Translations under genes and position numbers: made by a program
Origin: a virus
Taxonomy: Duplodnaviria > Caudoviricetes
IMG/VR virus record: IMGVR_UViG_3300020365_000010
Span: 12,167 to 76,166 of that record
DNA: 64,000 bases
Strand: one strand, 5' to 3'
Part shown: piece after piece, positions 2,565-63,908 of the stretch
How positions within the stretch are numbered: the stretch's first letter is position 1
Layout of the letters: each line of letters starts with the position of its first letter
The notes under the pieces: generated by a model
What the model saw: the letters and a program-made list of their open reading frames with translations, nothing else
The model's database searches: none
What the model was told of the DNA's origin: nothing

Positions 2565-3194
2565 ATGTCTGATCTTTCCCCTAGTCTCACTGATAAAATT
2601 CAACATGAGACTTACGGATTATTTCCACTCCCTGTCACCAAATATACCAACCCTGATCATGACAAACACAAGGAAGATATTCTTAAGTGGATGTCACAAC
2701 AAGAGTTAAAAGAGAAGCATGGTAGAGAAGCAATCTGCCACAACATCACACAGGTAGGTGATAACAATGAATGCCTAACTGCATTGCCTTGGATTGCTGA
2801 AACTCTCATCACTGCTGTTAATCAACACAACACAAATGCACACCTGTTTAACACTAACTTCGCTATCCAAGATAGTTACTTAGAGATCGCAGATGTGCAA
2901 GCAATCTATGCACCACATGAGCACTCTAATTGTTTATTTTCTCTCACCTACTTCGTCAACTTTAACCCAGACCAACATTGTCCCATTAAGTGGAGACGAA
3001 ACGTTGCCTCTAATTTCTATCCAGTCATGCAATTTGATTCCACAGGTTTCACACCTTACAACATGACCGAAGCAACATTCAACATTAAAGAGGGAGATAT
3101 TATTATTCACCCCTCAAACATTACACATGGATTTGATGCTAACCCTACTGGCAATAGAATCACACTCACAGCACAAATCGTCCCAGTAGCATGA
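2565..3194 (+). CDS. putative 2OG-Fe(II) oxygenase (TIGR02466-like)
   Basis: PHEHSN His-x-His motif, EGDIIIHPSNITHG distal His, C-terminal NRITL Arg. Confidence 0.8.
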   Translation: MSDLSPSLTDKIQHETYGLFPLPVTKYTNPDHDKHKEDILKWMSQQELKEKHGREAICHNITQVGDNNECLTALPWIAETLITAVNQHNTNAHLFNTNFAIQDSYLEIADVQAIYAPHEHSNCLFSLTYFVNFNPDQHCPIKWRRNVASNFYPVMQFDSTGFTPYNMTEATFNIKEGDIIIHPSNITHGFDANPTGNRITLTAQIVPVA

Positions 3195-4197: not shown

Positions 4198-4659
4198 ATG
4201 AAAATACGCCCCACAAGATTTCCAAGATACGAGGTAAGTGACACTGGAGAAGTGTATAGAGATGGAGAGTATCTCAAAGCACATCCCAGGGGTAAACTTA
4301 CGAAGGTTAATGATTCCCGCTATATGGCGGTGAATATTCAAACATTGGATGAGGAAAGCGGTAAGAAGCGATATAGCAAAGAATATGTGCATCGCCTAGT
4401 TGCCGAAGCATTCATACCAAATCCAAATAATCTTTCTGATGTGGATCACATTGATTGTAATAAAAGCAATAACCATGTGAGTAATCTCCGATGGGTTTCA
4501 CGGGAGGAAAACATGGCAAGGAATCGAAAACCGAAAGGGACGATACGCAAACGCAAAAGTTATTATATATCTGATGGAGAGGGAAATTGGACCTTGATTC
4601 CAAAGGAAGACCACGCCAAGTATGGTATCACTAATGAAACTAAGAAAACCAGTGACTGA
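4198..4659 (+). CDS. free-standing HNH homing endonuclease (NUMOD4-like N-terminus plus HNH)
   Basis: RYEVSDTGEV; VHRLVAEAFIPNPNNLSDVDHIDCNKSNNHVSNLRWV. Confidence 0.92.
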   Translation: MKIRPTRFPRYEVSDTGEVYRDGEYLKAHPRGKLTKVNDSRYMAVNIQTLDEESGKKRYSKEYVHRLVAEAFIPNPNNLSDVDHIDCNKSNNHVSNLRWVSREENMARNRKPKGTIRKRKSYYISDGEGNWTLIPKEDHAKYGITNETKKTSD

Positions 4660-9530: not shown

Positions 9531-10064
9531 ATGGCATATGGATTTCTAAAACCTGTTGCATCACTGAATGGTCTTCCATGCTCTGGACATGGACTTTGTA
9601 TACCATCCACCATTCACTCTGTACAGGCGTGTGGCACCCCTCCAATCCCCTACAGCATCGTTATTAAGAATTTTACATGCTGGTGGCCCCCTTTGCCCCT
9701 AATTCCGTTGACAGCGATCAACCCATTTAGGGCAACTGTGCTGGTAAACATGATTCCGATCATGTTGATGGGTGATGTTTTCATCAATCACCCTGCAGTT
9801 TGCTCGAATATCATCATTTACCTGTGCCCTTGTGGCAAAGCAATCTGTGCAATCCCAACTCCTATCCCATGTAGTCCCCTAACTATTGAAGATATGGGTG
9901 TTATTGGACACCCAAGAGTCGTTATGGCAACAACTTTGACAGTCTTTGCACTGAAATTGCCTGTTGCACGCATCCTAGACCCCCTCGGAGTCGGATTTCC
10001 TGGTTTCTCTTACCCCTGCTCGTCGGTTGTTGCCTTTGGACACCCCACTGTGCTTGCCTCATGA
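9531..10064 (+). CDS. PAAR-like baseplate spike-tip protein (gp5.4-like), expanded
   Basis: PCSGHG, PIMLMGD..HP, PVARILDPLG...CSSVVAFGHPTVLA; upstream of gp25. Confidence 0.7.
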   Translation: MAYGFLKPVASLNGLPCSGHGLCIPSTIHSVQACGTPPIPYSIVIKNFTCWWPPLPLIPLTAINPFRATVLVNMIPIMLMGDVFINHPAVCSNIIIYLCPCGKAICAIPTPIPCSPLTIEDMGVIGHPRVVMATTLTVFALKLPVARILDPLGVGFPGFSYPCSSVVAFGHPTVLAS

Positions 10065-11552: not shown

Positions 11553-13667
11553 ATGTCAGCAATTCCTTCACAACTTACGTCTCTGGACTTCTTTGAGATC
11601 AAAGAATCCATTAAATCCTACCTCAGGACTCGGAAAGAGTTTTCGGATTACGATTTTGAGGGAAGTAGCGCATCGTACCTGATCGATATCCTCGCTTATA
11701 ACACATATTATACAGCATTCAACGCTAATATGGCGCTGAATGAGTCATTTCTCGAAACTGCAACCGTCAGAGACAACATTGTCCGCATTGCAAAGCAGTT
11801 AAATTACACTCCTAGGTCAATTAAAGCGCCTAAAGCGTGTATTAAGATCGAAGCACAGACAGAGATCGCTCTAAATGGCACTACATTTCCCGAATTTGCG
11901 ACTTTGAAGAAGGGAGATGTGTTTGTTGCGGAGAATGCACTCGATTCTTTCACATTTACACTCACAAGAGACATCACAGTCCCCGTAAATTCCTCAACTG
12001 GACTGGCAACTTTCGATGATGTCGTCATTTATCAAGGAAATCTGCTCTCATACAACTATACAGTTGATTATACGAAGCAACAAGAGTTTTTGATCCCTGC
12101 AGAAAACGTAGATACGGGTCTTCTCAGTGTTGACATCTCTCCAAACGCACAATCTTCGGAAACTGACACCTACAGTCTCGTAAATAACGCGACTGCATTG
12201 ACAGAAACCTCCAGAATCTACTATTTGGAGGAAACAGATGACCTCAGATACCGTTTGATCTTCGGTGATGGCGTTTTGGGGCGCAAATTGATTGATGGTG
12301 AATACATCAGACTGGAATATGTGCAAACTGATGGTGTAGCAGCAAACGGATCGAAGTCATTTAGCTTCATCGGCAACATTATTGACTCTGATGGGCGCGT
12401 TTTGCCTACAGCAGGCATGATGCTGCATGTCAAGGAGTCAGCACAGCAAGGCGAAGATCGCGAAACAGGTCTAAGCATCAAATTTAGAGCACCTAGAGCG
12501 TATGCAACGCAAAACCGTGCTGTGACCGAGAATGATTATGAGCATATCGTTTCTGAAGTGTATCCTCAAGCAGCATCGGTGACTGCATATGGCGGAGAGA
12601 GACTTTCTCCACCAATTTACGGTAAAGTCTTTATCGCTATCCGTCCTAAGACAGGCACAAAGCTCAATGCGAGCACAAAAGCGAAAATCAAGAATGATCT
12701 GAAGAAGTTTGCGGTTGCATCAATCGAGCCTGTCATCGTTGATCCCACTTCTTACTACATTATTCCAAAATCTTACGTTTACTACGACGGAAACGCAACT
12801 TCCAATACTGGATCGCAACTTGGCACCAAAGTGTTGCAGTCAATTGACCAATTTAACAAAGCAGGTCAAACAAACCGCTTCAATAACCGTATTGATGGAT
12901 CTAAGTTTGGTGCTGTGATCGATAACAGCGATACATCCATTGCTGGTAGCGTAACTCAGATTACTTTGGGTCAAAATCTGGATCAATTCACTTGGGGTAA
13001 CGTATTTACCCAATGTTTGGACTTTGGTAACAGAATTTACGATCCTTCATCCTATGCTGGCGACGAGCCTAAGAATGGAGACGGCACAGACCCCGATGGC
13101 AACGTCGGTGGCACAAAATGTGACCCTTCATTCTCTGTGGTCAAGTCTGGCACATTCTATGCAACTGGTTATACCGAAGATTTGGTAAACCTTGCACTTG
13201 ACGAATCAACTGGCGCTCAGATCATCACTCCTGCGTTTAACTCCAACGTTGCAACTGAAGTCCTGGTCCCTGTCAACATCAGAGACGATGGTAAGGGCAA
13301 CTTGATGCTGGTTACTAAGCGTGATGAGACAGAATTGATTCTCAACCCAACCGTTGGCACGGTTGACTACGGATCTGGCAAAGTTTGCGTTGGACCTCTG
13401 GCAATTTCGGATACTCCCGACAATATCGAAAGACTTCCAATTCAGGTCGTGCCCTACAGTGGATCTATTGACATTCCACCTGGCGTTGACCCCACAATCT
13501 TTAATCCTGCGGTTAATCCAATCGACTTTACGATTAACACAATCCCTGTCCCCACCTTCGATCCCAACAACTTCTCGGGATACAACTTCGGTCCTACAGG
13601 GGGTATAAATATCATTGATTACCCAATGGATTCTTTCGAGTATCCAGTGCCAGACGGTTGTTTCTGA
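11553..13667 (+). CDS. g6: baseplate wedge subunit gp6
   Basis: LDFFEIKESIK...DYDFEGS...LIDILAYNTYY; RAPRAYATQNRAVTENDY. Confidence 0.95.
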   Translation: MSAIPSQLTSLDFFEIKESIKSYLRTRKEFSDYDFEGSSASYLIDILAYNTYYTAFNANMALNESFLETATVRDNIVRIAKQLNYTPRSIKAPKACIKIEAQTEIALNGTTFPEFATLKKGDVFVAENALDSFTFTLTRDITVPVNSSTGLATFDDVVIYQGNLLSYNYTVDYTKQQEFLIPAENVDTGLLSVDISPNAQSSETDTYSLVNNATALTETSRIYYLEETDDLRYRLIFGDGVLGRKLIDGEYIRLEYVQTDGVAANGSKSFSFIGNIIDSDGRVLPTAGMMLHVKESAQQGEDRETGLSIKFRAPRAYATQNRAVTENDYEHIVSEVYPQAASVTAYGGERLSPPIYGKVFIAIRPKTGTKLNASTKAKIKNDLKKFAVASIEPVIVDPTSYYIIPKSYVYYDGNATSNTGSQLGTKVLQSIDQFNKAGQTNRFNNRIDGSKFGAVIDNSDTSIAGSVTQITLGQNLDQFTWGNVFTQCLDFGNRIYDPSSYAGDEPKNGDGTDPDGNVGGTKCDPSFSVVKSGTFYATGYTEDLVNLALDESTGAQIITPAFNSNVATEVLVPVNIRDDGKGNLMLVTKRDETELILNPTVGTVDYGSGKVCVGPLAISDTPDNIERLPIQVVPYSGSIDIPPGVDPTIFNPAVNPIDFTINTIPVPTFDPNNFSGYNFGPTGGINIIDYPMDSFEYPVPDGCF
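13604..13611 (+). promoter_or_regulatory. late promoter TATAAATA within the g6 3' end, candidate gp7 promoter
   Basis: Exact T4 late consensus about 60 nt upstream of the gp7 ATG. Confidence 0.7.
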
Positions 13668-25600: not shown

Positions 25601-28600
25601 AACCCAACCTCTGCATATCATGGCACTGCAGGCAATAGATTCTATGATGCTGCAACTCGTATCAGAGAGAATAAGCAGCAACTGATTGATTGGGGCGATG
25701 CTGAGATCGTCGTTGAGCATCCTGACTTCTACTATCCTGGAGACATCCAGACAAATGAGTGGAGTAGATTTGCTGATGCACATCGCTTCATCCAGAAGAA
25801 TAGACAATACATCGCTGCTAAGGCATACGATGATATGAAGGCACAATTCCCTTCATTCACCGATCCCAATCCCGCTAAGTGTAAGCGTGACATGGAGATC
25901 TTCATGGAGTCTCTGGGTGCTGACATCTATCGCGGTGGTAACGTCTACATCCGCAAATTTACCCAACAGTATTTCGATAGTACTGGTGCTCTAGTTTATG
26001 TGGATGGCGAGACACTTGAAACTCGTTTTGCATATGAGAAAGTCAAGGATTATGTCCTGCTTGCTATCACCAATAACCTGAGTGGTCAGTATACTGCTCT
26101 CCATGGTCCTGACGCTGGCACTGTATATGATGCATATCAAGATCTGACCATCACTGCTGACCAATCACCTAACGATGACTACGGCACTGCTGGTAGCAAC
26201 ACCGACAACACCGATCCTGACGGTTGCTCTGATGTCCAAGATGCTCTGACAACTCTGTGGGAGATTGTTGATGAGGCACTGACAAATGGCACTCTGTCTG
26301 AGTTGCCCGATGAGCAAGTTGGCACTTACTCTCCTGGTCAGGTCAAGTGTCGTCGTGACGCTGGTCTGTTTGTCGATGCTCTGGCAAATGACGTTGCACA
26401 AGGTGGCAACTTCAACATTGTAGAATTCACCAAGTCATACTTTGATGGTGCTGGTGTCCCTCTGACGAATGGTCTGGTTGGCGAGACTGCTGAGTCAATC
26501 ACTGTCTTCAATAAGATCCGTGACCTGGCATACAGAGCAATCAACAACCTGCTGTATGACAAGGATCTTGAGATTCTCTACGATCCTCTGACCTATGGTG
26601 GCACTGCTCCTGGTCAACTGTATGATGCAAACTATGCAAATGGTAACAACCAGGATATCAACAACTGTGCTGATGTCCGTGCTTACATTGCAACCCTGAC
26701 AGATATTGCTACTGTTGCAATTGCTGCTGGTAACCTCAATAACGTCAACGCTCTGGCATCTGTCAGCGACGGCACATATGTTGACGGTGAGACAATCCGC
26801 ACAGCGAAGATTGCATATGACGATAAGTCTTCTGGTCTGTTTGTCCTCGGTCAGCAAATCCGAGGCGTTACCTCAGGTGCAGTCTTTGAAGCCGTTGGCG
26901 TCAACTCTGGTCTGAAGTGGATCTTTGCTGGTCCTATCACAGGCACTCTGCAAGAAGGTGAGTTGCTTACCAACTCAACTCTGGCAAATCAGGGTAACGT
27001 TGTCCAAACCAAGGTCAACAAGTATTTCAGACTCGATGGGCAAAAGGCACTTTCCTTCCCACAAGCAGGTTATCTGGTTGCTGCAGATTCTTACGATTAT
27101 GCATTCGGCACTGCAGATGACTTCACTATCGAAGGTTGGTGGGCAGCTGCAGGAGTAACTGGCACACAAACTCTGGTTGACTTGCGTCGTAACGATGTAA
27201 ACGTTGGTCTGCGCCTGGTAATGGATGGCAGCACCCTCAGAGTTTACAACGGCACTACTCAGTTGATCTCTGGTGGCACTATCACTGCAACTCTCTGGCA
27301 GCATATTGCTCTGGTGAGAAACAACAATGTCCTCCAGTTGTATGTGGATGGCACTCAGGTTGGCAGCAACTATGTTGATACCAATGACTACCTGTATACC
27401 AAGGTAACTATCGGTGCTGACTTCAACGCAGCAACTGGATACACTGGTTTCCTTGATAACTTCTTTATCAACAACAAGCAAGGTCTGTATACTCAGTCCT
27501 TCATCCCTGCCACACAGGTTGATTACACTAATGACAACATTGTCTTGGGTCTTAATGGTGAGGGCGACTTCATCTGCTCCACGACTGAGACATTTGCAAC
27601 CTTCACTGGATCTCGCACCTCGTCGGCAACTGCTAAGGTCATTGACTACGAAACTAAGTCTCTGATCATCAAGGATGTTGATCTGGGTAGAGCAGAGCAA
27701 AGAAGATGTGCAGACATCATTGAATTGAATGATGCATGGATTGCTGAAGAGGCAGTCGGAATGATGAAGGCACAATTCCCCGACTTCATCATGCCTGGTG
27801 ATGATCCTGCTAACAACTCTTACGGTGGCACAAACTACTGTCTGCGTGATACCAAGGATTACATCATTGGTGCATTGATTAAGGACCTCAGAGAAGGTGG
27901 TAACTATCACACTCTGTATACCGCTCGCACATACCTGGAAGCATCAGGAAAACTGAAGCACGTTGGTAATGAGATTCTGCAGACCCTTTACACATGGGAT
28001 GTGGTTGGTGACATCATCAACACTGTAATTACAACCACAAGTCTGGATCTGACAGGAGCTTACAGTGAGAAACTGAGAATTCCTAACAACTTCTCCTCAC
28101 CTGCGTCACAATCAGTCCAAGATGAAATTCGTGCTCTGATTGATGATCTCCTGCAAGTCCTTGCACCAACCCGTAATGGATTCAAGGATTCTGGTGTCCT
28201 CATCTGGAAAAACCGCGATTACATCGCAGAAGAAGTTGTTGGTTACCTCAATGACAAGTATACCAAGGACATTGATGGCACAGAGACCAACTTCCTCATC
28301 ATGCCTGGTGCAGGTAGCTCTGGATGTATTGATGACATCAAGAATTATATTCTCCCTGGTATTATCGGTGACCTTGTTACAGGGGGCACTTACAACACCA
28401 AGGCAGTAATCGACAACTATCTTGACTCTCAGGATAATATCCTGCACGTTGAGCATGAGTTGAATCCCATGCTGGACGCCTTTGCATACGCTAAATTCCT
28501 GTGCTTGAAAGCAGCAAACAACATGCTGGTTTCTCCTAATACCACAGTTGCTGAATTGGGTGTGCCCGCTTGGGTCCAAAATGGCGATTACTACGAGCCT

Positions 28601-31600
28601 CTCTATACCACCAGATCAGCATATCGCGATGACACTATCACTATTGACACTCAAGGATGGCCTCAAACTGGAGTTGCTAACTGGAGTAACTACTATGATG
28701 CATGGAGACTGATCAAGGGTAATCAGAAGTTGATTGCTAAGGAAGCAGTGGCAATCATGAATGATCTGTCCAAGTATCAGACATTCGAGATCCCTGGTGG
28801 TGCTGTCAACTGTGAAGATGACATTGAGGACATGATTGATGCCGTCCTGCACGATTTGCTCCATAATTGCAACAAAGAAATTTGGGAAGCAGCGGAGCTC
28901 TACATCGAGCCTGAGGACAATTCACTCAAGCATATTGAAAGTGAGTGGGAAGCATCTGTAACCACTTACAAGATTGTTAGAGACCTTTGCACTCTGGCAA
29001 TGCGTAATGCACTTGGTAGAGATTACATCGAAGGAAATGGTCCTGGATCGACTTCTGTCCAATCCTACGAGCAGAATCCATTCGAGATCATGTATCGCGA
29101 TACCGCAGATGCTATCGACGCTAACATTCGTCTGATTGCTGAAAACGCTGTCTACGACGGTATGCAGCAATATCCTTCATTGAATATCAACGGTGGTATT
29201 CGTGGCGGTCAGGAATTTGATGTTGTAACTGCAACTTACGACCCTGCAAACGGCGTTTCGGTCATCAACCTTGGTGCTGGTCATGGACTGGTTACTGGAA
29301 ACAGAATCACAATCCAACCCGAGTCTATCGGTTTCACCTGCACTCTGGATCAAAACAGTGCTACCAAATACTATCCCCGTAAGGGCGATGGCAACTATAA
29401 CGCATCTATTGCAATTACTGCACATACCTCAGATACAATCACGGTAAACGTGGGTGCATCTGGTGTTGATGGTCAGTATGCTCACACCTTCGTCACCGCT
29501 AAGAAAGGTGCTGTGGTCTCCAATGGTTACATCGATTGTGTCCATGACACAACTGATATCCTGAAGTCACTGGTCTTCAACTTGAAGTATGGTGGCGAAA
29601 ACTGGATGCAGTATGCTGCTGAATTCTATGTCAACACTGCAAATACTATTCAGCACCTGAGTGGTGTTACAACAGAGTCTATCTGGATTCTGGAGAGAGC
29701 ACGCGACCTGGCGAAGCGTGCAATGAGAGATCAACTGATCACTAACAATGCTGGATGGAGTGCAGGACAGCGTTACTACGACGCTACGCCTCAACCCACC
29801 AACCAATTGAGAAATGTTGATCCTGTCAGTGGCGTTGATATTACTACGTTTAACAACATCTCTACTAGAGATTGGGCATTCCGCACAGTTAGCATCAGCA
29901 CCAACCCTGCAGTTGGTGTGACGCCTACTGAAGATGCTGTATTTGAATTTGATGCCGTCCTGCCTAGCAGCGGTCTGACAGACTTTACTTTCCTGTCATT
30001 TGGTAATAACTCTTCCCAGGGTCTGTATCTTGGATTCCGTGACAACCAAACTTATCTGAGACTGCGTGCTGGTAACTCCGACACTACTGTTGCAGGTGGT
30101 GCTTCACATAGCGATACTGGTCTGGCATTGGTTGACGTGCCTGTTGCTGACCTGATTGCTGATGGTTACTTCGATGATAATCGTCACCAGATTACTATTG
30201 AGATCCGTGTTGGTGGTAACCAGATCCTTGGCGCTGGTCGTGTGAGAATCTGGATTGATGGTAATCAAATTGGAGAAGGTCAGACCCCTGGTAATACTTC
30301 TACGGGTCTTGGTGAAGCAGCAGGTATCTGGTGTGCAGATAACAACAATGGCACTTACGGTGGTGGTTATGCTGCTGCTTCTGTGCCCGCTGGTGAGAAT
30401 AACACAACTGCACCTCTCTCACCCTATGCTCCTAGTGATCTGATCTACTACAGAAATCGTCAGGTTGATCCTGGTTTCACTGGCACTGAGACTTCAGAAA
30501 TCGAAGCAAGAATCGATACTCTGATGCAGGTTGTTACTAATGCAATCTCCAATCCTGGTAACGTTGCAAACAATTCCTACAGTCTGCCTTATATCTGGCC
30601 TATCAAGTATACGCCCGAGAAGGCATATAGAGATCTGACAGTCGGATATGACTTCGCTAATGGTGGTCAAGATCAAGATGGTTTCTGGAATCAGACATGC
30701 CCCAATGTCGCATCCGCTATTGATACACTGTTTGACATTGTTATCAATACCATCACAGAAGCTGCTGTCAATAGCAACAACTACTTGACTGGTGTGCCTA
30801 AGACTCTGCCCCCAACTAACAATACAGAATATCAAGCAGGCACTTGCCATAACGAGCAATCTGCTATCGACACTCTGTTTGATATCATGATTGATACTCT
30901 TGGTGGTGGCACTAATAATGAGAAGCATGTTGCAAATATGCTGCTCTTCAACCACCAGGCAATTGCACAAAGAGTAATTGATCAAACTACTGCAAACTAT
31001 GCATCCACAAACGTAGATATCTCCTTCGCGGATGCTGTCTTGCGTGCGGTTAGATATGACATGGTTACTGGCGGTAATGCTGGATCATTCCGTCTCGCTC
31101 AGACATGGTTTGATGGTGAAGGTAACTTCATCGCCTTCCAAGATACAACTAGATCTCACCTGATCTATGCTCTGACACGTTGTCGTGAGTATATCAAGAG
31201 TGCTCTGTATCTCCTGGATGAAGATCCAGGTTGGGCAGGATATCCCACCTTCGCAGGTGATGATGGACAACGCTTTGAGTGGTTCCAGGAAGCAGCAGAG
31301 TTTATTATTGACTCCTCCCTCAACCCTCTGGAATATGCTCTCGAATTGAGCAAATTCCCAACTGAAGCAAGCGTGACCTTCGTGGCATCTACGGATGCAC
31401 AAAACATGAAGACCTCGCACGAAATGGGTATTGATTACAATACTGATCCTGCTCTGGTCTTGCTGACACCTGTTGTGGAAGTGGGTTATGAGCGTGCTGA
31501 GTATCGCATCAGAATCAACCGTCCAAACCAATTCCGTCGTGGTGATGTCCTGCAGTATATCCCTGCATCCCAGACCTCCCTGGAAGGACTTTCTGGTCAA

Positions 31601-62011: not shown

Positions 62012-62335
62012 ATGAAGTTTTTATTCGCGTTTCTGGCTACATTGTTTCTGGCAGCGCCCGCTTGGGCAGTCGATGTTATGATGGGTGCCGATGGTAACCT
62101 AGTCTTTGATCCTGCAGAAATCACAATCTCCGCAGGAGATTCGGTCCACTTTATTAACAACATGCTCCCACCTCACAATGTGATCGTGGAAGATCATCCA
62201 GAATTAGGTCATGAAGCTCTGGCAATGTTGCCAGGTGAAGACTTTGAAGTTGCATTCCCTGAAGCAGGTGACTACACTTACTGGTGTGGTCCTCACAAGG
62301 GGGCTGGAATGATCGGCACTGTGCATGTAGAATAA
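62012..62335 (+). CDS. petE: plastocyanin with signal peptide
   Basis: AWA signal cleavage; PPHN and YWCGPHKGAGM type-1 Cu ligands. Confidence 0.96.
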   Translation: MKFLFAFLATLFLAAPAWAVDVMMGADGNLVFDPAEITISAGDSVHFINNMLPPHNVIVEDHPELGHEALAMLPGEDFEVAFPEAGDYTYWCGPHKGAGMIGTVHVE

Positions 62336-62838
62336 TGAAAAAATTCAATGAGGTTACACTGAATATCACTGTAGCAATCATTGACTTCCTTTATTTTGGA
62401 AGAGACTTTCAACGTTTCTGGGTGCTTGAGGAAATAGCTCGGGCACCCTATTTTGCGTTTTTGAGCGTCTTACATTTCAGGGAGTCTTTAGGATTGCGAG
62501 GTCCAGAGCATCTATACTTGATGAAGGAACACTTTGCTCAGAGTCTCAATGAAACAGAACATCTTGAGTATATGGAAAGTAGGGGCGGTAGTGCTTATTG
62601 GTTGGATCGCGCTTTCGCCAGATTCCTCGTACTTGTCTATTATTGGGTCAATGTGGTTTATTACTGGTTGGCTCCTGTGTCTGCATACCATCTGTCATAC
62701 GAAGTAGAGATACATGCAGCAGAAACATATGCCAAATACTTGGCACTCAACGGTCCCGATGCTAAAATCCTTGAGATCTTGAATGACGAATTAGAGCACA
62801 GTCGGGAATTACAAAAAGCAATGGAGATGATTAAATGA
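62335..62838 (+). CDS. ptox: plastoquinol terminal oxidase (PTOX)
   Basis: Di-iron motifs LEEIARAPY, NETEHL, EVEIHAAETY, DELEHS; start set at ATG 62335 (TAATG). Confidence 0.94.
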   Translation: MKKFNEVTLNITVAIIDFLYFGRDFQRFWVLEEIARAPYFAFLSVLHFRESLGLRGPEHLYLMKEHFAQSLNETEHLEYMESRGGSAYWLDRAFARFLVLVYYWVNVVYYWLAPVSAYHLSYEVEIHAAETYAKYLALNGPDAKILEILNDELEHSRELQKAMEMIK

Positions 62839-63908
62839 AAGTTGGAATGATCGGACTCGGACGGATGGGCGAGGGAATGTCTCGTCGCATGATGCGTAAT
62901 GGGCATGAAGTCTGGGGATATCGTCGCAACCTTAAGAAAGCAGAAGAAGCATACGAGAAAGGATATGTCAGTGGCATCACTTATGGCATTGAGCAACTCG
63001 TAGAGGTATGCCATAGAGGTCAAAGCATCTATGGTGAAAAATCTGGAGAGACTGTCTATACTGAGCAACCAGGCGTCTTCATGATGGTGGTGCCAGCAGA
63101 AACCGTGGAGGATACACTCAATGAGCTACTACGACATTGTAGTGAAGGAGATATTATTATTGATCATGGCAATAGCAATTTTAAGGACAGTCGGAAAAGA
63201 GCCGAGCGTTGTGCAAAACTGGGCATCGCGTATCTTGACTGTGGTACTAGTGGTGGTGTGTATGGTTTGGAGCGTGGATTCTGCCTCATGGTTGGTGGCG
63301 GAAGCACGGCAGTCGATGTATGCCGCCCTCTCTTCGATGCACTCGCGCCAGGAATTGGTGCTGCCCCCAGGACAGGTAACACCGACACAAACTTCACATG
63401 GTATCCAGAAGAGTATGGATGGATGCACTGTGGAGATGCAGGAGCTGGTCACTTCGTGAAGATGGTCCACAACGGCATTGAGTATGGAATCATGCAAGCA
63501 TATGCCGAAGGATTCAACATTCTGAATGAGGCGAATGCAGGAGCACAGTATGTCAAGGAAGGAGACGCAGAGGTCGCCCCAATGGACAACCCTGCCGATT
63601 ATCAATACGATATTGACGTTGCTAAGGTGGCTGAGCTTTGGCGTCGTGGTAGCGTGGTTGGTAGTTGGTTGCTCGATCTTACCGCTACTGTATTACGCAG
63701 CGATAGAGAGCTTAGCAAATTCGATGGGGGAGTATCAGACTCTGGTGAGGGTCGTTGGACTGTCCACGCTGGTGTGGATCTTGGCGTACCCACTCCTGTC
63801 ATCTCTAGTGCTCTGTGGGCACGTTTTGAGTCGCGCCGTCTTGGTGCTTTCACGGCCAAGGTTTTGAATGGAATGCGTGCTATGTTTGGTGGTCATGACG
63901 TTCGCTGA
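62835..63908 (+). CDS. gnd: 6-phosphogluconate dehydrogenase (short type)
   Basis: GMIGLGRMG, IIDHGNS, DCGTSGG, AGHFVKMVHNGIEY, DSGEGRW. Confidence 0.96.
   Translation: MKVGMIGLGRMGEGMSRRMMRNGHEVWGYRRNLKKAEEAYEKGYVSGITYGIEQLVEVCHRGQSIYGEKSGETVYTEQPGVFMMVVPAETVEDTLNELLRHCSEGDIIIDHGNSNFKDSRKRAERCAKLGIAYLDCGTSGGVYGLERGFCLMVGGGSTAVDVCRPLFDALAPGIGAAPRTGNTDTNFTWYPEEYGWMHCGDAGAGHFVKMVHNGIEYGIMQAYAEGFNILNEANAGAQYVKEGDAEVAPMDNPADYQYDIDVAKVAELWRRGSVVGSWLLDLTATVLRSDRELSKFDGGVSDSGEGRWTVHAGVDLGVPTPVISSALWARFESRRLGAFTAKVLNGMRAMFGGHDVR

Follow-up and report, generated by a model that had tools for sequence, protein, structure and literature searches.

How does a protein family known from the light-harvesting antennae of cyanobacteria come to be repeated inside the baseplate of a virus, and does it still carry pigment there? 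This question is raised by a 64,000-nucleotide stretch of a tailed virus (Caudoviricetes; IMG/VR record IMGVR_UViG_3300020365_000010, positions 12,167 to 76,166), referred to here as the window, which belongs to an uncultured viral contig of 76 kb with an estimated completeness of 43%. One of its open reading frames encodes a giant protein of 6845 amino acids, of which residues 3992–5891 form a phycobiliprotein-like stretch. A preliminary description, made from the letters alone, had read this stretch as tandem bilin-binding domains. We find that the repeats are almost certainly phycobiliprotein-type bilin-binding globin domains in homology and fold. A tetrapyrrole bound by these phage domains appears, from sequence conservation, to be the best single explanation, one that we believe somewhat more than we doubt it.

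Seven copies of a helical domain of about 118 positions were recovered between 25766 and 31222 with a hidden Markov model (HMM) iterated over 71 homologous giant proteins. Their E-values range from about 1e-37 to 2e-24, and the repeat pieces also match one another in pairwise phmmer comparisons (E down to 1e-14), in line with the roughly seven helical repeats first proposed. The iterated HMM found no further copy of the domain in the other open reading frames of the window. The giant protein and its repeats, named R1 to R7, are laid out as follows.

13673–34210, plus strand: giant virion/baseplate protein, 6845 amino acids, in the gp7 position (open reading frame list; phrog_701, virion structural protein)
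25637–25759, plus strand: probable N-terminal partial copy ahead of R1, first long helix only (assigned by position; not significant in the window itself)
25766–26116, plus strand: R1, CKRD (Cys codon 25880), GG at +18; HMM E 1.2e-36; PF00502 15.2 bits, positions 33–84; AlphaFold2 predicted local distance difference test (pLDDT) 88.7
26225–26590, plus strand: R2, CRRD (Cys codon 26348), first helix replaced by a C-x-D-V...L helix motif; HMM E 7e-25
27695–28105, plus strand: R3, CLRD (Cys codon 27839), long B–E loop as in phycobiliproteins; HMM E 8e-35; PF00502 15.7 bits; AlphaFold2 pLDDT 83.5
28178–28573, plus strand: R4, CIDD (Cys codon 28325), Asp at +2 here, Arg in most orthologues; HMM E 9e-32
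28688–29050, plus strand: R5, CEDD (Cys codon 28811), N-C-N replacing G-G-N; HMM E 4e-37
29090–29773, plus strand: R6, CVHD (Cys codon 29537), a split copy (29090–29233 plus 29432–29773); HMM E of the halves 1e-8 and 8e-26
30920–31222, plus strand: R7, degenerate: the Cys is missing and Phe stands at the Asp87 position, but GGN is kept; HMM E 2e-24

All six C-x-x-D codons that had been reported were found where they were placed, and each of the six Cys-bearing copies has the Asp87 equivalent three residues after the Cys. A GG turn follows at +18/+19 in five of them, the exception being R5. In the alignment with phycocyanin alpha, the same distance separates Cys84 from Gly102/103. R7 has the GG as well, and its lack of the Cys had been recognized correctly. 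The proposed Cys84/Arg86/Asp87 set stands only in part: Cys and Asp are present in six copies, but Arg at +2 is limited to R1–R3, with Asp in R4 and R5 and His in R6. An extra C-x-x-D (CTLD, 29339) lies in an insertion, off the Cys column of the domain. As for the partial copy ahead of R1, its equivalent reaches E-values of 6e-4 in the homologue L003 and 4e-4 in L005, over HMM positions 1–36. Partial copies of about 37 residues (first helix, HMM positions 1–38) are frequent among the relatives, and they occur in tandem runs of two to four before full copies in S-PM2, S-RSM4, Syn1, S-CAM4 and B3.

Are these repeats really related to phycobiliproteins? The preliminary description had suggested a search with the phycobilisome profile PF00502, and this profile does match the repeat region, at 28.9 bits against a Pfam cut-off of 22.2 (E 1.3e-6), which places the repeats in the phycobiliprotein family by sequence profile. 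The score is made up of two partial matches of about 15 bits, in R1 and R3, at profile positions 33–84 of 155. A precomputed PF00502 match exists for 47 of the 71 listed homologues. For the opposite direction, a profile of 26 phage copies from the window and six cyanophage genomes was run against all PDB sequences. It gave 125 matches, of which the best 60 are all phycobiliprotein-family chains (best E 5.9e-6), engineered fluorescent derivatives among them; the best of the matches listed are phycocyanin and phycoerythrin alpha chains and ApcF. The alignment starts at phycobiliprotein residue 39 and brings the phage Cys into line with Cys84, R-D with Arg86-Asp87 and G-G with Gly102-103. Judged by these sequence comparisons, the resemblance is beyond chance, and it is visible at the profile level only.

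Predicted structures lead to the same family. AlphaFold2, run with a 66-row alignment, gave confident models of R1 (predicted template modelling score 0.80; helices 5–34, 43–63, 67–74 and 90–108) and R3 (0.72). Foldseek searches of the PDB, which had been proposed as a check, return phycobiliproteins throughout the matches listed, at ranks 1–49 for R1 and 1–48 for R3. When the R1 model was compared with 48,161 chains using VIA, ranks 1–9 were taken by bilin-binding globins, eight of the phycobiliprotein family and one photocobilin. The top match is phycoerythrin (PE) beta residues 26–164 (Z 11.6, root-mean-square deviation 3.1 Å, 125 residues). The other leaders are far-red APC (allophycocyanin), the ApcE bilin domain, further phycobilisome chains and the photocobilin (Z 10.4), with haem globin sensors next at Z of about 8. 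Pfam, the reciprocal profile search and two predicted structures thus agree on the phycobiliprotein-like globin fold read from the letters at the outset.

One could still suppose that the domain is an unrelated helical bundle, brought up by convergence or as a search artefact. Single copies, at about 15 bits, remain under the Pfam domain cut-off, and R1 alone found no phycobiliprotein in the PDB by phmmer, where only spurious MORN/Arf matches appeared. Along the same lines, no Foldseek E-value falls below 0.035, and a language-model search of the ESM Atlas gave weak globin-like leads (scores 0.85–0.86), with the N-terminal globin-like domains of RsbR as the nearest named cluster. However, forward and reverse profile searches, which are independent, are both significant and specific and share register and motif spacing, two separate models match phycobiliproteins only (among the matches listed), and the domain is restricted to cyanophages. 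We therefore regard convergence as very improbable indeed.

What has been kept of the phycobiliprotein, and what has been lost? The R1 and R3 models are predicted to contain a globin-type core with the helices of the Cys84 pocket (B, E, F' and G). The X-Y hairpin, responsible for alpha-beta pairing, is absent from the repeat unit, the models aligning from phycobiliprotein residue ~26–33 on, and in place of helix H there is a short beta hairpin or an extra helix. The domain would therefore be a trimmed pocket core and not a full subunit. Since the hairpin is missing and the domain is covalently embedded in a virion protein, assembly into (alpha-beta)3 discs or phycobilisome rods with linkers appears unlikely. 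The earlier idea of a phycobilisome mimic finds no support in domains of an extracellular virion protein that lack this pairing element.

Can a functional pocket be recognized by its conservation? A profile search of 1.84 billion representative proteins retrieved 1,494 carriers, in which a single protein can have as many as 35 matched stretches. Family-wide conservation was assessed on the 149 best carriers, which are at most 50% identical to one another: of 1,520 copies, 96% have the Cys, 94% the Arg(+2) and 98.5% the Asp(+3). Ranked by conservation across 1,062 full copies from these 149 proteins, the 118 columns are headed by Asp(+3), Tyr70, Asp54, Cys and Arg(+2), so that the equivalents of Cys84 and Asp87 indeed rank among the most conserved positions of the phage family, a test that the preliminary description had put forward. 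Overall, Cys makes up 0.68% of the residues of the 149 carriers, and proteins with 32–33 copies have it in every copy. With three of the five most conserved columns, the C-x-R-D triad argues for a ligand site that has been kept, and it is this conservation, the strongest of the new evidence, that leads us to favor a bound tetrapyrrole. CXRD is the recognized chromophore motif of phycobiliproteins, and those bilin biosynthesis-associated globins (BBAGs) that bear it attach bilins without a lyase (PMC10151467).

The individual copies of the window follow their own rules. Cys and Asp are found in essentially every aligned orthologue of R2–R4, with Arg in 100%, 97% and 89% of them, respectively; for R2, all three residues are present in 100% of 59 unique copies. 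C-x-D-D is invariant among the aligned R5 orthologues, R6 orthologues are mostly C-x-H-D, and in R7 the Cys is absent and Phe or Tyr occupies the Asp site in 63 of 63 unique copies. These copy-specific states are thus kept across orthologues. At the other end of the scale, the metagenomic representatives P0074–P0076 (4,800–6,400 amino acids) hold 29–33 full copies with a Cys in all of them; if chromophorylated, they would be very pigment-dense fibres.

The same observations can be turned towards a structural role free of pigment. An ancestral cyanomyovirus would have captured the core of a host phycobiliprotein as a rigid spacer or bead for its baseplate and fibre proteins, with C-x-R-D kept for folding, interdomain contacts, a disulfide or a metal in an oxidizing sea. 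This is the main rival, and we hold it to be possible, though improbable. The domain does behave like a fibre building block, considering its numbers per protein and its many carriers, and it is flanked by lectin-like and other structural domains. It tolerates an insertion of 108 residues in the B–E loop, R7 is a conserved member without Cys, and the near-invariant Asp54 and Tyr70 have no identified phycobiliprotein counterpart; a pigmented cyanophage virion was not found in the literature either. What an apo module leaves unexplained is why three chromophore-contact residues remain in the top five of 118 columns after divergence to 20–30% identity, and why proteins with little Cys elsewhere should keep a lone one in each copy of a 30-copy array.

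A third view accepts the pocket and changes its occupant. The ligand may be something other than a light-sensing bilin, such as biliverdin or a haem-derived tetrapyrrole serving as fold-stabilizing cofactor or antioxidant, or the domain itself may be a receptor-binding surface for a component of the host envelope. Globins of the bilin-binding kind that do not belong to phycobilisomes carry biliverdin and are photoinert, with no known function (PMC10151467), and photocobilin and globin-sensor domains are close structural neighbors of the phage domain. Moreover, the +2 position is R, D or H among the copies, which suggests that the pockets are not uniform. Against this, the full C-x-R-D, as in phycobiliproteins and BBAG-1/3, dominates the family (93–98%), and the family is confined to phages of bilin-rich or bilin-making hosts. 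We give this view a small chance.

Which phages carry the domain, and do they share a phenotype? A tblastn search with the domain alone found it in 328 of 50,697 GenBank phage records, all of them Synechococcus or Prochlorococcus phages. The carrier proteins go by the annotations baseplate wedge, tail fibre, short tail fibre or virion structural protein. Among 25 complete cyanophage genomes 20 are positive; the five negative ones are P-SSM2, S-SM2, S-SSM7, S-CRM01 and S-TIM5. Among the domain-rich isolates, S-RSM4 shows 16 matches and S-PM2 13. The RefSeq record of S-PM2 deserves a caution: in NC_006820.1 (165928–177267), 16 tRNA features lie inside the coding sequence of a 'short tail fiber protein' and share its locus tag, which looks like a mistake of annotation or of coordinates.

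Adsorption experiments offer a comparison. In the dark, P-HM1 and P-HM2 fail to adsorb, unlike P-SSM2 and the podovirus P-SSP7 (Liu et al. 2019, PMC6628666), and the mechanism of light-dependent cyanophage adsorption is described as unresolved (PMC6628666). Six domain matches were counted in each of P-HM1 and P-HM2, against none in P-SSM2 and P-SSP7 even at E≤1. In these few phages, the presence of the domain matches the light-dependent phenotype in a suggestive way.

Could the phages also make and attach the pigment? CpeT (PF06206) is found in 17 of the 20 domain-positive and in none of the five domain-negative genomes, and in S-PM2, Syn1, S-RSM4 and S-CAM4 cpeT lies 0.3–1.5 kb upstream, on the same strand, of the giant domain-bearing 'short tail fiber' gene. 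A naive Fisher test on the co-occurrence (~0.001) was rejected, as a portal-protein tree leaves two independent contrasts. In that tree the domain-negative S-SM2, P-SSM2 and S-SSM7 share a clade with the domain-positive B3. All six domain-positive phages isolated on Prochlorococcus have a bilin reductase; as a marker of the domain these reductases were discarded, because they follow Prochlorococcus hosts and not the domain. S-type lyases were considered as alternative attachment enzymes, and none turned up among the 25 genomes. The contig of the window itself shows no cpeT, which at 43% completeness is uninformative.

The full-length form of CpeT (about 180 amino acids, E 1e-35 to 1e-43) is confined to the clade of S-PM2, Syn1, S-RSM4 and S-CAM4; other clades have a shorter, divergent CpeT (open frames of about 135–225 amino acids, two-piece matches with E 1e-5 to 1e-11) with no domain-bearing gene adjacent. 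In S-PM2 and Syn1, cpeT and the fibre gene are separated by a 2-oxoglutarate (2OG)-Fe(II) oxygenase gene (T4-GC 104), and the window has a 2OG-Fe(II) oxygenase too (2565–3194). Phage CpeT reportedly forms a complex with phycoerythrobilin (PEB) without passing it on to the host beta subunit, a result attributed to Gasper et al. in 2017.

Several observations weigh against pigmented domains of phycobiliprotein type in the virion. The full C-x-R-D is found in only three copies of the window phage (R1–R3). Foldseek E-values for both models are weak (0.035–1), and a Z of about 11 can be reached by helical proteins through arrangement alone. The light-adsorption match covers three to four phages, which differ in clade as well. 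On the side of the pigment genes, B3, S-ShM2 and P-SSM7 carry the domain and have no CpeT at E≤1e-3. On the portal tree, about two changes are enough to explain the pattern of the domain and three that of cpeT, and with only two independent contrasts no significance can be claimed for the link between CpeT and the domain. The four phages with cpeT beside the fibre gene form one clade. P-SSM2 and S-SSM7 have bilin reductases and lack the domain, an S-type lyase is present in 0 of 25 genomes, and the usual target of T-type lyases is beta-Cys153/155 and not the Cys84 site (PMC10452541). Finally, no report of pigment in a cyanophage virion was found in the literature. Neither did we find a paper on phycobiliprotein-like domains in phage structural proteins; databases already hold automatic PF00502 matches to these proteins.

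Taken as a whole, we lean, if only slightly, towards bilin-carrying, host-derived phycobiliprotein-type domains in the baseplate and fibre proteins of T4-like cyanophages. Such domains would have been cut down to the core of the chromophore pocket (helices A/B, E, F' and G), losing the X-Y hairpin, and then multiplied as modules in baseplate and fibre proteins. Six of the seven window copies retain the attachment Cys of helix E together with the Asp by which the pyrrole nitrogens are held; three of them have the Arg as well. The giant protein would be made late in infection, in a cytoplasm presumably stocked with free bilins, whether of host origin or made by phage Ho1, PebS and PcyA. A bilin may then become thioether-linked to the helix-E Cys of each competent domain, with the help of the phage CpeT-like lyase or a Cys84-type lyase of the host, or autocatalytically, as reported for ApcE and BBAG globins. 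The periphery of the baseplate would end up with tens of chromophores next to lectin-like receptor-binding domains.

What would a virus gain from this? The role we favor is that light sensing gates adsorption or the triggering of the baseplate; the fallback would be a pigment that merely stabilizes the fold. Light-gated adsorption as such is doubtful, and so, in about equal measure, is its stronger form, in which covalent bilins make the cyanomyovirus virion a photoreceptor that permits adsorption or baseplate triggering in light only. If true, a photoreceptor in the virion would explain the light-dependent adsorption long known for phages such as S-PM2 and P-HM2, and cpeT, pebS, pcyA and ho1 would gain a target in the virus particle itself.

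The wider meaning depends on the pigment in part only. Phycobiliproteins are familiar as subunits of the antennae of cyanobacteria and algae, and here a trimmed version is a mass-produced virion module with a strongly conserved chromophore triad. If chromophorylated, it would make this the first phage virion to bear pigment and possibly to sense light. It would then become directly testable why some cyanophages adsorb only in light, and why cyanophages, including those of Prochlorococcus, which has no phycobilisomes, carry genes for bilin synthesis and lyases. The role of the cyanophage pigment genes has been called unresolved, a mystery (PMC3037559). Even if apo, the domains would plainly show a photosynthesis protein of the host being reused as virion architecture, and they would be a source of compact single-Cys bilin-binding scaffolds.

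The surroundings of the repeats are those of a tail structure. The giant open reading frame sits in the baseplate module of a marine T4-like cyanomyovirus, immediately downstream of a gp6 homologue (the gp6-like wedge protein phrog_219, 11553–13667). The structural module of the window comprises a gp5-like protein with PAAR, the gp6-like protein, the giant protein and further wedge and fibre proteins; neck and sheath-stabilizer genes are also present, and then PTOX and gnd. A PAAR protein is encoded at 9531–10064, an HNH endonuclease at 4198–4659, and the end of the structural module (62284–63908) is formed by PTOX (62284–62838) and the 6-phosphogluconate dehydrogenase gene gnd (62835–63908), which overlap by four bases. 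By megablast, the region has no match among GenBank phages. A homologue of the giant protein in S-SZBM1, 48% identical, is annotated as baseplate wedge initiator. The name gp7 given in the preliminary description is thus backed by the position after gp6 and by this annotation, but not by Pfam, where no gp7 family match was found for the N-terminal, middle or C-terminal parts of the protein. Outside the repeats, Pfam recognizes YHYH and Laminin_G_3 only, the latter as follows.

27110–27469, plus strand: Laminin_G_3 / concanavalin-A-like lectin domain, between R2 and R3 (PF13385, E 2e-12, residues 489–608 of P0001)

Smaller elements are woven into the repeat region. The insertion in R6 is a beta-rich stretch of about 108 residues (~29200–29525) in the B–E loop, directly before the Cys, and matches phrog_1276. 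It is shared by the window phage and L001/L002 and is absent from the close relatives L003/L004 (77–83% identical), in which R6 is uninterrupted. The phrog_1276 module also occurs on its own in gp7 of S-SSM7 and in P-SSM5, where the globin domain is lacking or not shown. A short helix motif, C-x-[DN]-[VE]-x3-[IL]-x-T-L-x-[DE]-I, is found at least four times around the globin repeats (Cys codons 26225, 26666, 30698 and 30845): it replaces the first helix of R2, reappears after R2 and comes twice ahead of R7. Versions without Cys lie near 28120 and 30590, and in the R3 model a Cys-less version is a confident extra helix after the core.

How does this protein compare with known systems? T4 gp7 is a baseplate wedge protein of 1032 amino acids. 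The window protein shares its gene slot after gp6 in a T4-like baseplate module and has homologues annotated as wedge initiators; it differs in being 6.6 times longer and filled with lectin-like, YHYH and phycobiliprotein-like modules. With the phycobiliproteins (PF00502: CpcA/B, CpeA/B, ApcA/B and the ApcE bilin domain), the repeats share the A/B-E-F'-G helical core, the register of an F/Y-P motif at the end of helix B and the C-x-R-D at the start of helix E, followed by GG 18 residues on. In contrast to these, the phage core has about 118 residues instead of ~160–175 and its own near-invariant Asp54 and Tyr70. Virion proteins of 1,000–8,000 amino acids hold this core in tandem or nested copies, seven here and as many as about 35 in others, whereas phycobiliproteins are free subunits that form (alpha-beta)3 discs; the phage domain is known here from sequence and predicted structure, and its bilin binding is putative. 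BBAGs and photoglobins or photocobilins (Rockwell et al. 2023, PMC10151467) are likewise globin-fold bilin binders outside phycobilisomes, some with CXRD and lyase-free attachment, and a photocobilin domain is among the structural neighbors of R1; unlike the phage repeats, they are cellular proteins of a single domain, encoded in clusters with genes for bilin synthesis. The pigment auxiliary genes of cyanophages (cpeT, pebS, pcyA, ho1) belong to the same phage lineage, with cpeT adjoining the domain-bearing fibre gene in one clade. Their enzymes are thought to act on the antenna proteins of the host, and it is the virion-directed role, so far a hypothesis only, that would set the system described here apart.

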